Below are positions 32,567-39,643 of a stretch of 64,000 bases of DNA, one piece after another. The position numbers were made by a program, and so were the translations under genes. Origin of the DNA: Clostridiales bacterium (GTDB lineage: Bacteria > Acidobacteriota > Aminicenantia > Aminicenantales > UBA8522); assembly GCA_029907205.1 (NCBI GenBank), contig JARYMI010000010.1:16097-80096 (forward strand), written 5' to 3'. Below the pieces are notes generated by a model, which did not search any database, was not told the origin of the DNA, and saw nothing but the letters and a program-made list of their open reading frames with translations. The first letter of the stretch is position 1. Every line of letters begins with the position of its first letter.

Positions 32567-33019
32567 GTGGAGATAGCAAAAATCCTCGGCGAATTCCACG
32601 GGCTTCAAAAAGACCTCATCCATATCCTCCACCGGGTCCAGGCCCAATTCGGCTATATTCCGCCCGAGGCTGTTGCTCAGATTGCCGAGTGTCTAAAAAT
32701 CAGCGAGAACGAAATTTTCGGCGTGCTCACGTTTTACAAAGCCTTCAGCCTCGAGCCGCGAGGCCAGTATCTCGTCACGGTCTGTCTCGGCACAGCCTGC
32801 CATGTCCGGGGAGGCGTCCAAATCGTCGAAGAGATGGAAAGAAAACTCCAGGTCAAGGCCGGCCAAACGACGCCGGACAAGAAATTCACCCTGGAAACCG
32901 TCAACTGCCTGGGATGCTGCGCCATCGGTCCTGTCGTCGTCGTCAACGGAAAATATTACTCCCATGTCACTCTCAACAAAGTTGAGCCAATTATCAAAGA
33001 GTACAGAGAAGCGGGTTAA
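32567..33019 (+). CDS. NuoE-like (HoxE/HndA-type) thioredoxin-like [2Fe-2S] subunit.
   Basis: CLGTACHVRGG...CLGCCAIGPVV contains the four-Cys NuoE [2Fe-2S] motif. Likely GTG start at 32567 after an AGGAGAGG RBS. The track ORF starts at 32525 and overlaps ald. Confidence 0.8.
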   Translation: MEIAKILGEFHGLQKDLIHILHRVQAQFGYIPPEAVAQIAECLKISENEIFGVLTFYKAFSLEPRGQYLVTVCLGTACHVRGGVQIVEEMERKLQVKAGQTTPDKKFTLETVNCLGCCAIGPVVVVNGKYYSHVTLNKVEPIIKEYREAG

Positions 33020-33025
33020 GCGGTC

Positions 33026-34936
33026 ATGAAAAAGATCAGTCATCCTTCCCAGCTCCAGGATTGGAAGAAGCGGCTTTTGGCTGAACAGCCCGCCTATGAC
33101 AAGACTATTGTTGTCTCTTCAGGAACCTGCGGCCAGGCCAGCGGCTCCCTTCAGATCATCGAAGCCCTGAACTCGGAGCTGGAGAAGAAGGATCTGCGAG
33201 AGACGGTCGGACTCGAGATCACAGGCTGCCACGGCTTCTGCGAGCTCGAACCAAATATCGTCATCTATCCGCAGGGCATTTTTTATAAAAAACTCACACC
33301 GAACGACATTCCCCGGGTCATCGATGAAACAATCCTGAAAAATAAAATTGTCCCTTCTCTCATCTACGAAGACCCGAGGACCGGCCGCCGTTTTTCCCTT
33401 CAGAAGGACTTCCCTTTCTACCAGAAACAGAACCGTCTCCTCACCGAGAATAACTTCAGGATCGACCCGACAAAAATCGAAGACTACATCATGATCGATG
33501 GCTATCAGGCTTTAGCCAAGGTTCTCTTCGACATGACGGCTGAGGAGGTGATTGCCGAGATCCGCGCATCTGCTTTGCGGGGCAGAGGAGGGGCAGGATT
33601 TCCGACTGGATTGAAGTGGGAGATCTGCCGCAACGCCTCTTCTGACCGGAAATACATCATCTGCAACGCTGACGAGGGAGACCCCGGCGCTTACATGGAC
33701 CGCAGCCTCCTCGAGGGAAACCCCCACAGCGTCATCGAGGGAATGATTATCGGCGCTTACGCGATCGGCGCCGCCGAAGGCTATATCTATGTTCGGACGG
33801 AATACCCGTTGGCAGTAAAGCATGTCAGTATTGCCCTTGAGCAGGCCAGGGTGCGCGGGCTGCTGGGGAAGTCCATCCTGGGCTCGGAATTCCATTTTGA
33901 CATCCACATTGTTGAGGGCGCGGGAGCCTTTGTCTCCGGTGAAGAAACCTCGCTCATGGCTTCGATCGAAGGCCGGCACGCTTTCCCCAGGCAGCGGCCG
34001 CCTTTTCCCGCCCAGGAAGGGTTGTGGGGAAAGCCGACCAACATCAACAACGTCGAAACCTGGGCCAACGTTCCGCTCATCATCAACCGCGGCGCTAAAG
34101 AGTACAGCCAGATCGGCACTGCCGGGAGCAAGGGAACGAAGATTTTTTCGTTGGTGGGCAAAATAAACAACACCGGACTTGTGGAAGTGCCGATGGGAAT
34201 CACCCTTCGTGAAATTATCTATGACATCGGCGGCGGGATCAAGGACGGCAAGAACTTCAAGGCCGTCCAGACAGGAGGGCCTTCAGGTGGGTGCATCCCG
34301 GCAGAGAAGTTAGACTTGCCGATTGACTACGACACCCTCACTCAGGCCGGTTCGATCATGGGCTCGGGCGGCATGATCGTGATGGACGAGGATACCTGCA
34401 TGGTCGATGTTGCCCGTTATTTTCTTCATTTCACCCAGGAAGAATCGTGCGGCAAGTGCGTTCCTTGTCGGGTAGGCACGAGGCAGATGCATGACATCCT
34501 GACGCGCATCACTCGGGGCCTGGGAGAGGAGAGGGACCTCGACCAGCTTGAGGAGCTGGCCAATTCTGTCCAAAGCGCTTCTCTCTGCGGGCTCGGCCAG
34601 ACAGCTCCCAACCCTGTGCTCACGACTCTTCGCTATTTCAGGCCGGAATACGAAGCCCATATCAAGAAGAAAAGCTGTCCGGCCTTAGTCTGCAAAGAGC
34701 TCCTCGTCTATTACATCGAGCCGGAAATATGCGTCGGCTGCCTCCTTTGCAAAAAAGGCTGTCCAGTCGAGGCGATAAGCGGCGAGAGGAAGAAGGTTCA
34801 CGCGATCGACCAGGACGTGTGCATCAAGTGCGGGGCCTGTCTTGAAATATGCCCCCCTAAAATTAAAGCTGTTTTCAAGTATACGGGCAAGAAAAAGGAA
34901 AAAATCCTCAAAAAAAAGCTGAGCGAGAAGGTTTAG
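33026..34936 (+). CDS. NuoF-like flavoprotein subunit (FMN/NADH-binding, [4Fe-4S]) with an extra N-terminal thioredoxin-like domain and a C-terminal 2x[4Fe-4S] ferredoxin domain (HndC/HydB-like).
   Basis: GRGGAGFPTGLKW (NADH/FMN), ESCGKCVPCRVG ([4Fe-4S]), and C-terminal CVGCLLCKKGCP...CIKCGACLEICP. Confidence 0.85.
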   Translation: MKKISHPSQLQDWKKRLLAEQPAYDKTIVVSSGTCGQASGSLQIIEALNSELEKKDLRETVGLEITGCHGFCELEPNIVIYPQGIFYKKLTPNDIPRVIDETILKNKIVPSLIYEDPRTGRRFSLQKDFPFYQKQNRLLTENNFRIDPTKIEDYIMIDGYQALAKVLFDMTAEEVIAEIRASALRGRGGAGFPTGLKWEICRNASSDRKYIICNADEGDPGAYMDRSLLEGNPHSVIEGMIIGAYAIGAAEGYIYVRTEYPLAVKHVSIALEQARVRGLLGKSILGSEFHFDIHIVEGAGAFVSGEETSLMASIEGRHAFPRQRPPFPAQEGLWGKPTNINNVETWANVPLIINRGAKEYSQIGTAGSKGTKIFSLVGKINNTGLVEVPMGITLREIIYDIGGGIKDGKNFKAVQTGGPSGGCIPAEKLDLPIDYDTLTQAGSIMGSGGMIVMDEDTCMVDVARYFLHFTQEESCGKCVPCRVGTRQMHDILTRITRGLGEERDLDQLEELANSVQSASLCGLGQTAPNPVLTTLRYFRPEYEAHIKKKSCPALVCKELLVYYIEPEICVGCLLCKKGCPVEAISGERKKVHAIDQDVCIKCGACLEICPPKIKAVFKYTGKKKEKILKKKLSEKV

Positions 34937-38089: not shown

Positions 38090-38140
38090 AGATTGCGGAG
38101 TGACAAAAGTGATGCATCGCCTATTAGGATAGAGTGAAAA

Positions 38141-39643
38141 ATGAGTGAGAAACAAGAGCTGGCGCCCGAGCTCAAGGAAGGGCTAAAAGCCGAGTTCGAC
38201 AAGGACTGGCGGAAGGAGCTGAGGAAGGCCATTCCGGCCAAAGAAAGGATGAAGATTCCGCGGCAGAAGATGCCGGAGCGAGAACCCGAGGTGCGGAACC
38301 GGGATTTCAAGGAAGTCAACCTGGGGCTCGAGGCTGAAGCGGCGCGGCGTGAAGCCCAGCGCTGCCTGGATTGCGCTAACCCTTCGTGTGTTACAGGCTG
38401 CCCTGTGGCCATCGATATCCCTACCTTCGTCAAGCTCATCGAGAAGGGAGAATTCGTGGCCAGCCTTCGAACGATCAAGGAGACAAACAGTCTCCCGGCC
38501 ATCTGCGGCCGCGTCTGTCCGCAGGAAACCCAGTGCGAGGTCGTCTGTAACCTGAAAAAGGCGACGGGTGCGCCCGTGGCCATCGGCAACCTAGAGAGGT
38601 TCGTCTCTGACGTTGAGTACAGAGAAGGGAAAGTCTTTGTCCCGGCGATCCCGCCTTCCACAGGGAAAAGGGTTGCCATCATTGGCGCCGGCCCAGCCGG
38701 CCTGACTGTGGCCGGGGAACTGGCTAAAAAAGGCCACAAAGTGACGATTTTCGAAGCCCTCCACATCGCCGGCGGCGTGTTGGTCTACGGCATTCCTGAG
38801 TTCCGTCTTCCCAAGAGCATCCTCAAGGCCGAGGTCGATTATCTCGAAAAGTTAGGCGTCGAGCTGAAGATGAGTTTTGTCGTCGGAAAAGCAGCCACTA
38901 TCGATGACCTCCGGAAAGACGGCTATGACGCCTTTTTTATCGGGACCGGAGCCGGGCTTCCGAATTTCATGCGCATTCCCGGGGAAAACCTCATCGGGGT
39001 CTATTCAGCTAACGAGTACCTGACCCGGGTGAACCTGATGCGGGCCTACGATTTTCCGGCTTACGACACGCCCGTTTTCCGGGGGAAACGGGTGGCTGTC
39101 ATCGGCGGCGGCAACGTGGCCATGGACTCGGTGCGGACGGCCAAGAGGCTCGGAGCTGACCTGGCAGCCATCATCTACCGCCGTTCCCGGCACGAGATGC
39201 CGGCCAGGGAAGAAGAAGTCAAGCACGCCGAGGAGGAGGGAATCGAGTTCCATTTCCTGACGACGCCCATCCGGTATATCGGCGACAACGACAACAAAGT
39301 CAAGGCCATGGAGTGCCTGCGCATGGAACTCGGCGAGCCCGACTCCTCGGGCCGGCGGCGTCCTGTGCCGGTCGAGGGTTCTGAGTTTATGACCGAAGTG
39401 GACATGGTCGTCGTGGCCATTGGCCAGAGCCCCAACCCCTTAATGGCCCAGACAACACCCGACCTCAAAGTGGGCAAGTGGGGGAATCTCGAGGTCGACT
39501 GGAAAACCATGGCCACGAGCATTCCCGGAGTTTACGCCGGCGGAGACATCGTCAGGGGAGGGGCCACGGTTATCCTGGCCATGGGGGACGGCCGCCTGGC
39601 TGCGCAGGAAATCGATAAGTACCTGAAAGATGGCCAGAGATGA
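38141..39643 (+). CDS. NfnB/SudA-like large subunit (glutamate synthase small-subunit GltD-like; FAD/NAD(P)H and 2x[4Fe-4S]).
   Basis: CLDCANPSCVTGCPV, CGRVCPQETQCEVVC, and the dinucleotide-binding motifs VAIIGAGPAGL and VAVIGGGNVAMD. Confidence 0.8.
   Translation: MSEKQELAPELKEGLKAEFDKDWRKELRKAIPAKERMKIPRQKMPEREPEVRNRDFKEVNLGLEAEAARREAQRCLDCANPSCVTGCPVAIDIPTFVKLIEKGEFVASLRTIKETNSLPAICGRVCPQETQCEVVCNLKKATGAPVAIGNLERFVSDVEYREGKVFVPAIPPSTGKRVAIIGAGPAGLTVAGELAKKGHKVTIFEALHIAGGVLVYGIPEFRLPKSILKAEVDYLEKLGVELKMSFVVGKAATIDDLRKDGYDAFFIGTGAGLPNFMRIPGENLIGVYSANEYLTRVNLMRAYDFPAYDTPVFRGKRVAVIGGGNVAMDSVRTAKRLGADLAAIIYRRSRHEMPAREEEVKHAEEEGIEFHFLTTPIRYIGDNDNKVKAMECLRMELGEPDSSGRRRPVPVEGSEFMTEVDMVVVAIGQSPNPLMAQTTPDLKVGKWGNLEVDWKTMATSIPGVYAGGDIVRGGATVILAMGDGRLAAQEIDKYLKDGQR

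Follow-up and report, generated by a model that had tools for sequence, protein, structure and literature searches.

The window analyzed here, a 64,000-nucleotide stretch of contig JARYMI010000010.1 (assembly GCA_029907205.1), contains five consecutive genes on the + strand that bring together the subunits of two types of electron-bifurcating enzymes, a HydABC/Stn-like Bfu module and an NfnAB-type pair. The first gene, bfuC (32567..33019, 150 residues), encodes a NuoE/HydC-like thioredoxin-like [2Fe-2S] subunit (PF01257, 1.2e-50). It is followed by bfuB (33026..34936, 636 residues), assigned by Pfam to a NuoF/HydB-like subunit for flavin mononucleotide (FMN) and nicotinamide adenine dinucleotide (NAD(H)), and by bfuA (34938..37256, 772 residues), which encodes an FdhA/NuoG-like Fe-S subunit with a degenerate molybdopterin domain. 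The last two genes are nfnA (NfnS; 37256..38089, 277 residues; NF004862, 358 bits), encoding a subunit for flavin adenine dinucleotide (FAD), NAD(H), and a [2Fe-2S] cluster, and nfnB (NfnL; 38141..39643, 500 residues; TIGR01316, 619 bits), encoding a GltD-like subunit for FAD, the phosphorylated dinucleotide NADP(H), and two [4Fe-4S] clusters. Successive genes are separated by 6, 1, -1, and 51 nucleotides, the stop codon of bfuA and the ATG of nfnA sharing one base (TAATG). The sequence-only reading of this DNA had described five contiguous, closely set genes, and the Pfam and NCBIfam assignments agree with that description.

The start of bfuC is most likely the GTG codon at 32567, since an AGGAG ribosome-binding site precedes it and since it yields a protein of the length found in homologues (150–153 residues). 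A longer open reading frame (ORF) starting at 32525 overlaps the alanine dehydrogenase gene alaDH, whose stop codon lies 17 nucleotides upstream of the GTG. The five genes were compared with 85 related loci, 80 of which came from a one-genome-per-species scan and were mapped by tblastn; taxon names are those of the deposited metagenome-assembled genome (MAG) records. Cys87, Cys92, Cys128, and Cys132 of BfuC (counted from the ORF starting at 32525) are invariant in the linked loci, i.e. those combining the module with nfnAB (34/34).

The BfuB core and the degenerate BfuA subunit

BfuB contains the Pfam domains Complex1_51K, SLBB, NADH_4Fe-4S, and Fer4, with an N-terminal thioredoxin-like region and a C-terminal ferredoxin-type domain of the 2x[4Fe-4S] kind. 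Its top relative of solved structure is NiFe-HydB of Acetomicrobium mobile (7t2r_B, 851 bits). Comparison with HydB and with the B subunits of Nfn-Bfu/Stn enzymes gave scores of 684–770 bits, versus at most 392 bits for the non-bifurcating Nqo1, FdsB, and NuoF. In bifurcating BfuB subunits, the pocket has been described as DEGDPGA[FY]MDRS plus GAGAFV, as opposed to ..PGSFKDR and GAGAY in non-bifurcating homologues (PMC9304861, Suppl. Figs 9-10). BfuB of the window carries DEGDPGAYMDRS and GAGAFV, the diagnostic motifs of Schut et al. 2022 (PMC9304861). All bifurcating-type motifs are present, namely CNADEGDPGAYMDRS at residue 213, GAGAFVSGEE at residue 298, DTCMVD, and AH..SCPALVC, and Phe302 is invariant (36/36 linked loci). 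The residues equivalent to Cys438, His525, Cys531, and Cys536 of A. mobile at the B2/Zn site are C458 (in DTCMVD), H545, C551, and C556. The B1 cluster is assigned to C475, C478, C481, and C521, and the ligands of both sites are invariant in the 36 loci. The ligands of clusters B3 and B4, which form the ferredoxin site, are also present (C569/572/575/579 and C599/602/605/609). The NuoF-like subunit is thus predicted to be a BfuB of the bifurcating type.

In a Pfam search, BfuA matched Fer2_4, NADH-G_4Fe-4S_3, Fer4_Nqo3, Molybdop_Fe4S4, and Molybdopterin, and did not match Molydop_binding (PF01568, the pterin dinucleotide-binding domain IV), a hydrogenase H-cluster domain, Pyr_redox, or Fer4_20. 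Alignment with FdsA of R. capsulatus (6tg9_A) placed Asn368-His369 opposite Cys386-His387, CHSP being replaced by NHSP. Asn368 (codon at 36039-36041) therefore stands in place of the selenocysteine (Sec) or cysteine ligand of molybdenum, and Ala554 (36597-36599) in place of the catalytic arginine, PLRGQNN being replaced by PLAGENN. The molybdenum-ligand cysteine and the PLRGQNN arginine are the established catalytic residues of FdsA. Independently of this, the column of Asn368 can be equated with the Sec/Cys position because at least 28 related loci with an intact formate dehydrogenase (FDH) have a cysteine or an in-frame TGA (selenocysteine) codon there, within DHCARL[C/U]H, together with NPLRGQNN.

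Across the 45 linked loci, positions 368, 369, and 554 are unconserved, and each of the Fe-S ligand positions checked is conserved in at least 43, 20 of them being invariant. The invariant positions include the ligands of cluster A5 (C247/250/254/282), which sits beside the pterin in genuine FDHs. In the His-ligated motif HxxxCxxCx5C, His93 and Cys97 are invariant (45/45); Cys100 and Cys106, like Cys122, are cysteines in 43/45 loci, and Cys33 in 44/45, the remainder being alignment gaps. Close Aminicenantes homologues of 852–856 residues retain domain IV and have already lost the catalytic residues, which indicates that death of the site preceded loss of the domain. The C-terminus of the 772-residue protein falls just past a YRG..L-type remnant motif, its last conserved element.

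The sequence-only reading had stated that the NuoG-like subunit has neither an H-cluster nor a clear molybdopterin catalytic signature. Both absences stand, the second in the form of Asn368, Ala554, and the missing PF01568; the molybdopterin-type fold, in contrast, is present, and its predicted status is that of a degenerate scaffold. BfuA is accordingly best described as a putative former alpha subunit of an NAD-type FDH that has lost its metal-pterin site. The alternative that the locus encodes an ordinary NAD-dependent or bifurcating FDH (FdhA-HydBC) with an unrelated nfnAB next door draws on the source annotation of homologues as 'formate dehydrogenase alpha subunit' and on FDH alpha subunits being the best matches of BfuA in sequence and fold. 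The fold match goes no further than the sequence result: the AlphaFold2 model of BfuA, built from a 12-row alignment, has a mean pLDDT (predicted local distance difference test) of 60, with the Fe-S domains below 50, and a Foldseek search with it returned FDH alpha subunits first and NiFe-HydA next. Loss of the Sec/Cys ligand, the arginine, and domain IV, and the drift of these positions in the 45 linked loci while DHCARL[C/U]H and NPLRGQNN are retained in genuine FDH relatives, make an ordinary FDH very improbable.

BfuA also contains a 25-residue insert after the HxxxCxxCx5C motif (residues 93-131, window 35214-35333), which adds a second CxxCx5C. The cysteines C122, C125, and C131 of the insert are found in at least 43/45 loci. 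In FDH-intact Chloroflexi relatives that have the insert, a further cysteine would serve as the fourth ligand, a position held by Thr112 in most NfnAB-linked proteins. The insert may form an extra or modified Fe-S or Zn site.

Linkage and fusion of BfuA and NfnA

NfnA and NfnB match free Nfn enzymes of solved structure over their full length, and their cluster ligands are conserved, which bears out the earlier description of a complete NfnAB-type pair. NfnA scored 315 bits against the small subunit of Pyrococcus furiosus NfnI (5jca_S) and 235 bits against Thermotoga maritima NfnA (4ylf_A); the FAD/NAD(H) motifs GERIPLTIAD and GGCFG align with both. The Asp/Cys3 ligands of its [2Fe-2S] cluster (Asp217, Cys222, Cys225, and Cys237) are invariant (45/45 loci). 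NfnB aligned end-to-end with T. maritima NfnB (4ylf_B, 553 bits) and P. furiosus NfnL (5jca_L, 534 bits), versus only 322–362 bits for the GltD-like domains of Nfn-Bfu/Stn. GAGPAG and GGGNVAMD, the two Rossmann motifs, and YGIPEFRLPK align with both structures. Seven of the eight cluster cysteines of NfnB are invariant in 41 loci, the eighth, Cys122, being a cysteine in 39/41. NfnB also keeps the arginine that corresponds to R201 of T. maritima, next to flavin N5; in the complex, the N5 contact is putative.

Conservation of the locus was examined at two levels. Homologues of the 772-residue BfuA with 50–60% identity share one long syntenic block, mostly on Aminicenantes-labelled contigs, in the order metallo-beta-lactamase, amidohydrolase, alaDH, the five genes, CoA-transferase, RNase HIII, AlaX, and MacB. 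Shared gene order of this kind would not by itself be evidence of a functional link. In contigs from other phyla, however, the order nuoE-nuoF-nuoG-nfnA-nfnB recurs without the Aminicenantes flanks. The unit was found under the labels Aminicenantes, Chloroflexi/Dehalococcoidia, Bacteroidota/Bacteroidales, Planctomycetota, Zixibacteria, Cloacimonadota, Desulfobacterota (Deltaproteobacteria/Desulfocapsaceae), WOR-3, TA06, Thermoleophilia, Thorarchaeota, and Thermoplasmatota, and spans more than 12 bacterial and archaeal phyla. Median spacings at the four junctions are -4, -1, -1, and 3 nucleotides (36–46 loci); between bfuA and nfnA, the median of -1 comes from 46 loci, 44 of which have spacings of 50 nucleotides or less.

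The NuoG-like genes were then sorted by catalytic motif into degenerate (41 evaluable) and intact (31 evaluable). The gene following a degenerate bfuA was nfnA in 40 cases, the sole exception (L027@6612) probably being an alignment misclassification. Directly after an intact fdhA, nfnA was present in 3 cases and missing in 28. The two modules are thus co-conserved outside the window. The sequence-only reading had named as contrary findings an intact FDH active site in the NuoG-like subunit, or modules that are transcribed apart and not co-conserved elsewhere; on both points the results turned out in its favor. The search for additional neighbors across phyla revealed no universal one beyond nfnAB. 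The three intact-site loci with nfnAB next door are all from Chloroflexi (L015, 9001-14010; L020, 8287-13253; L021, 9001-13924) and encode an FdhA whose Cys or Sec (TGA) active site is intact, followed by nfnA-nfnB. These loci look like the ancestral state. They may represent formate-linked ancestors of the pterin-less unit, or else a distinct enzyme that couples formate, NADP(H), NAD(H), and ferredoxin.

Three BfuA::NfnA fusion proteins (1080, 1079, and 1023 residues) emerged when 1.8 billion cluster representatives were searched exhaustively, without a profile, using BfuA as the query. In each of them, DHODB_Fe-S_bind comes after the complete set of BfuA domains, and the C-terminal ~260 residues are 42–46% identical to NfnA of the window. 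The fusions are 45–52% identical to one another, keep all the Fe-S ligands of BfuA, and have a degenerate FDH site. In each case the gene order is nuoE-nuoF-[bfuA::nfnA]-nfnB (L086, L087, and L088/L089), and one of the fusions occurs on four contigs from different runs. Their nearest unfused relatives are Thermoplasmatota loci. In the fusions, the N-terminus of NfnA is placed beside the C-terminal YRG..L remnant motif of BfuA. Gene fusion of this sort is a classic sign that two proteins operate within a shared assembly. Since such natural fusions are found in three divergent lineages, BfuABC and NfnAB are likely to belong to one physical assembly. Pairwise-identity matrices from 32 complete loci were also compared. 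The correlation was highest between BfuA and NfnA (r=0.91; 0.89 without the Aminicenantes group), above BfuA-BfuB (0.74) and BfuA-BfuC (0.70); these coefficients are inflated by shared ancestry and are supportive only.

A candidate complex linking NADPH, NADH, and ferredoxin

We propose, with a probability of about 0.7, that the five genes encode one soluble complex of the Type 3 Bfu kind, in which NfnAB would act as the third-substrate module and which would link NADPH, NADH, and ferredoxin. BfuBC cores require a third, mid-potential substrate, which is served via BfuA (PMC9304861). NfnAB is the candidate for this role because BfuA has no site of its own and because nfnAB are the sole universally associated genes. 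The features shared with Type 3 enzymes are the His-ligated cluster motif of BfuA, the lack of a catalytic domain of its own, and the presence of adjacent or fused nfnAB; the attachment itself is predicted. BfuC and BfuB would form the HydBC/Bfu-type bifurcating core, comprising FMN, the NAD(H) site, and a site for ferredoxin on the 2x[4Fe-4S] domain at the C-terminus of BfuB. BfuA would be a scaffold and an electron conduit through its retained Fe-S wire. NfnA-NfnB would be attached to BfuA, with the N-terminus of NfnA beside the C-terminus of BfuA, and would supply the NADP(H) site. Like Nfn and Stn, the complex would interconvert NADPH, NADH, and ferredoxin, but it would have both the Bfu flavin-cluster site and the b-FAD of NfnB. 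The sequences directly show the gene content, the conserved cofactor ligands, the lost FDH site, the co-occurrence across phyla, junctions of the translational-coupling type, and the natural fusions; from these patterns we infer the physical complex, its substrates, its wiring, and its enzymatic activity.

Two wirings can be envisaged. In the simple, Stn-like wiring, NfnB would merely feed electrons from NADPH into BfuA. In the serial wiring, the b-FAD of NfnB would bifurcate NADPH, passing the high-potential electron to NAD+ via NfnA and its low-potential partner to BfuA, and BfuBC would split again between NAD+ and ferredoxin. The stoichiometry would be 4 NADPH + 3 NAD+ + 2 Fdox -> 4 NADP+ + 3 NADH + 2 Fdred (Fd, ferredoxin). 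With physiological potentials of -380 mV for NADP and -280 mV for NAD (PMC9304861), arithmetic on this assumed wiring places the ferredoxin equilibrium near -680 mV, versus about -480 mV for Nfn/Stn. Full conservation of NfnA and of the NfnB arginine favors an NfnAB pair that would still bifurcate. Two bifurcation sites in series, acting as a 'low-gear' transhydrogenase, are a possibility that we regard as doubtful. That cluster A5 is invariant hints at the former pterin side of BfuA as the point of electron entry; in Stn, the A5-type branch has been considered a dispensable remnant (PMC10482914).

Several observations weigh against a single bifurcating complex of this kind. The N-terminal [2Fe-2S] site of BfuB, B5, has three cysteines (C35, C68, and C72) and Ser31 as the fourth residue; the solved Nfn-Bfu enzymes have no B5 cluster either and do bifurcate. 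The ferredoxin arm of BfuB is not universal, since the 582-residue BfuB of locus L005 has no ferredoxin domain and the proteins of L001, L021, and L033 have a GltD-like module in its place; with this domain missing or replaced in some relatives, the unit family is predicted to be mechanistically heterogeneous. Sequence cannot distinguish the simple wiring from the serial one or define the route between the clusters of NfnAB and BfuA. The Fisher test of the association between degenerate BfuA and nfnA (p ~1e-15) is descriptive, as the counts are phylogenetically non-independent. A scan for promoters and terminators between 28 and 44 kb was uninformative, the counts lying within the range of shuffled sequences and no site splitting the genes. 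Finally, a search for linkage-specific insertions in linked versus unlinked NfnB copies revealed none and, in a rough neighbor-joining tree, Bfu-linked NfnB proteins intermix with neighboring unlinked copies instead of forming a clade apart. The tree thus gives no date for the recruitment of NfnB and no sign of its specialization. Because of this lack of separation, the linked NfnA and NfnB, which are fully canonical, could in principle act as an ordinary free Nfn.

The intermixing of linked and unlinked NfnB is also one basis for considering two co-transcribed but separate enzymes, a free NfnAB and an orphan BfuABC-like module whose partner is unknown or encoded elsewhere. The high scores of NfnB and NfnA against solved free Nfn, with every cofactor ligand kept, fit this possibility, and enzymes of one pathway often share operons. 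Yet free enzymes would leave aside the BfuA::NfnA fusions in three divergent lineages and the pairing of pterin-less BfuA with nfnA in 40/41 cases when no other neighbor is conserved across phyla. BfuA, moreover, co-varies more tightly with NfnA than with its known partners BfuB and BfuC, and Bacteroidales loci carry another nfnAB next to the unit, so that the linked genes cannot simply be the housekeeping pair. We therefore consider two separate enzymes unlikely.

A different possibility retains the single complex and assigns to the NfnAB-like pair a physiological substrate other than NADP(H), such as the other acceptors proposed for the Xfn/NfnII-type and sulfide dehydrogenase-type paralogues, the third substrate then being unknown. 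P. furiosus has a second Nfn-like enzyme with unclear physiological substrates, and NfnAB homologues have historically been annotated as sulfide dehydrogenase or as the small subunit of glutamate synthase. In addition, the Methanothrix loci encode an NfnA-like subunit and no NfnB. For the window, the end-to-end alignment of NfnB, with its two Rossmann motifs and YGIPEFRLPK conserved, and the NADP-linked genes or pntAB that flank some of the loci argue for NADP(H), and a non-NADP(H) substrate also seems improbable to us.

The proposed NADPH-, NADH-, and ferredoxin-linked complex resembles several known systems in part. StnABC/NfnABC (Nfn-Bfu, Type 1; Sporomusa ovata, Caldicellulosiruptor saccharolyticus, and Thermococcus sibiricus) likewise has a HydBC-type core, a NuoG/Fdh-like subunit with an incomplete pterin site, a GltD/NfnB-type NADPH-FAD module, and the same expected substrates (NADPH, NAD, and ferredoxin). 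In Stn, however, the GltD-like domain forms an insertion within the BfuA polypeptide and an NfnA homologue is lacking (PMC10482914), whereas NfnB of the window is a separate protein and NfnA is present. NfnB is also nearer to free NfnB than to the Stn-type domains (553 versus 322–362 bits), and BfuA is nearer to FdsA-type FDHs than to StnC. These two affinities point to an origin independent of Stn. The window pair can be aligned along its entire length with the free NfnAB enzymes of T. maritima and P. furiosus, and the cofactor ligands are shared. The free enzymes, however, are heterodimers without a HydBC-type partner, whereas the window pair is genetically coupled to BfuABC, and in some archaea the corresponding NfnA is fused to BfuA. 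NiFe-HydABCSL of A. mobile (Type 3 Bfu) provides the closest solved BfuB, and its BfuA (7t2r_A) is also pterin-less and Fdh-like. There, two extra subunits, the small and large subunits of a NiFe hydrogenase, dock on BfuA and bear the third-substrate site; in the window the extra subunits are NfnA and NfnB, themselves capable of bifurcation. FDHs of the Fdh-Bfu/FdsABG type have the same BfuA domain order and fold and differ from the window protein by the Sec/Cys, the arginine, and domain IV. The class II benzoyl-CoA reductase BamB-I, which has a HydBC-type module in series with a second flavin-based bifurcation module, sets a precedent for stacked modules (10.64898/2026.04.10.717634). Its second module is HdrA with a tungsten catalytic subunit, whereas in the window NfnAB would take this place and no other catalytic subunit would be involved.

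The catalogue of Bfu enzymes comprises the Codh-, FdhFeFe-, F420-, Fdh-, FeFe-, Mbh-, Nfn- (fused, ABC only), NiFe-, Nuo-, Por-, Rub-, and Wor-Bfu classes (PMC9304861), and contains no BfuABC+NfnAB class (PMC9304861). A review of the distribution of Nfn does not mention NuoE, NuoF, or HydB neighbors. The paper on the structure of Stn describes Stn as having no NfnA homologue and Nfn as having no HydBC homologue (PMC10482914). MAG papers annotate FdhA-HydBC and NfnAB separately, and names such as NfnAB-Hyd and HydBC-Nfn had no match in the open-access literature. The five-gene unit thus appears to be undescribed in that literature, in line with the initial view that the two modules in one five-gene unit, with no catalytic subunit of a hydrogenase or formate dehydrogenase, are not a standard described architecture. 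The parts and their general logic were already known, whereas the combination, its wide occurrence, and the fusions appear to be new.

Genomic context, variant loci, and implications

The gene upstream of the unit, alaDH (31434..32549, + strand; PF01262 and PF05222), scored 288 bits against Thermus AlaDH (2eez) and is a genuine member of the alanine dehydrogenase family. It is probably co-transcribed with the five genes in the window and lies outside the conserved module. The downstream neighbor (39678-40976) is an acetyl-CoA hydrolase/transferase-family gene (Pfam/NCBIfam). A link of these two genes to the unit had been suggested before. Both do adjoin it, but this arrangement is confined to closer Aminicenantes-type loci and is absent from the unit elsewhere. 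As Aminicenantes-specific synteny, it says little about function. A search for Rex operators gave two matches with three mismatches, both far from the locus and no more than expected by chance. A 35-residue N-terminal extension of NfnB, considered as a docking mark, was rejected because unlinked Bacteroidales copies have it too, whereas most other linked copies do not; judging from this distribution, the extension is lineage-specific.

Related loci showed additional variations. In L001 (4557-7739), a 1060-residue BfuB has its C-terminal 2x[4Fe-4S] domain swapped for GltD-like Fer4_20 and Pyr_redox_2 domains. A NuoF hit followed by an in-frame GltD-like hit was also found in L021, L033, L034, L040, L041, L058, L076, and L084. 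This BfuB::GltD-like fusion is found in units linked to NfnAB as well as in Dehalococcoidia units whose FDH is intact, and the low-potential arm appears to be rewired in such variants. In Methanothrix harundinacea (L028, 6609-12265) and in L027, nuoE-nuoF-bfuA is followed by an overlapping nfnA-like gene, with no nfnB, and the ORFs that come next have no Pfam match. The Methanothrix locus may correspond to the F420-Bfu locus of PMC9304861; the NfnA-like subunit would then be a component of that system that has gone unremarked.

The flanks of other loci contain further redox genes. Three Bacteroidales/Bacteroidota loci (L049, L050, and L067) have divergent pntA/pntB-like genes upstream, identified by 26–27% tblastn similarity and sequence inspection only, and a second nfnB (and nfnA) pair in convergent orientation downstream, amounting to three pyridine-nucleotide systems per locus. 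In L087 (11111-13763), the fusion unit is immediately followed by genes for glutamate dehydrogenase (ELFV_dehydrog) and isocitrate dehydrogenase, and a Glu_synthase-domain gene is located upstream of it. The pntAB/second nfnAB flanks and the two dehydrogenase genes fit, as hints, a role in pyridine-nucleotide balancing. The flanks of L025, L026, L029, L032, L052, and L082 encode recurring small Cys-rich proteins and a 4Fe-4S protein of ~440 residues; by eye, proteins in these flanks resemble the regulatory set found beside HydABC hydrogenase operons.

Elsewhere in the window, a stretch of low G+C content (12078-13514 and 14014-14088; 0.38 versus ~0.55) lies just upstream of tRNA-Lys(CTT) and contains two ORFs, the first of 216 residues without a Pfam match and the second for a nucleotidyltransferase toxin of the AbiEii type (PF08843). 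The stretch has the appearance of a small AbiE island, a type IV toxin-antitoxin system acquired next to a tRNA gene. A gene at 55907-58246 encodes BamA, with five POTRA repeats and Omp85. The organism should therefore have an outer membrane, which is at odds with its 'Clostridiales' label. Long-range synteny with Aminicenantes-labelled contigs suggests an Aminicenantes-type bacterium.

Electron bifurcation underlies the energy conservation of anaerobes. Nfn and Bfu (HydABC/Stn) are usually treated as alternative and unrelated solutions, whereas the unit holds a complete copy of both machines in one operon, with BfuA and NfnA in a single polypeptide in some archaea. It occurs in poorly known phyla, including Aminicenantes, Dehalococcoidia, Bacteroidales, Planctomycetota, Cloacimonadota, Thorarchaeota, and Thermoplasmatota. 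Since annotation pipelines label BfuA as a formate dehydrogenase, metabolic reconstructions may wrongly infer formate metabolism. The series from intact FdhA with NfnAB (Chloroflexi) to a dead site with domain IV, a truncated BfuA, and finally a BfuA::NfnA fusion shows a catalytic subunit turning into a scaffold, in parallel to how Stn arose. With its four genes, the naturally fused version offers a compact construct for testing whether bifurcation modules are stackable. If the serial wiring were true, the reverse direction would make NADPH at half the ferredoxin cost, and the unit would be the second natural case of hierarchically coupled bifurcation after BamB-I, with a wide distribution among uncultured anaerobes, Asgard archaea and Thermoplasmatota being among them.

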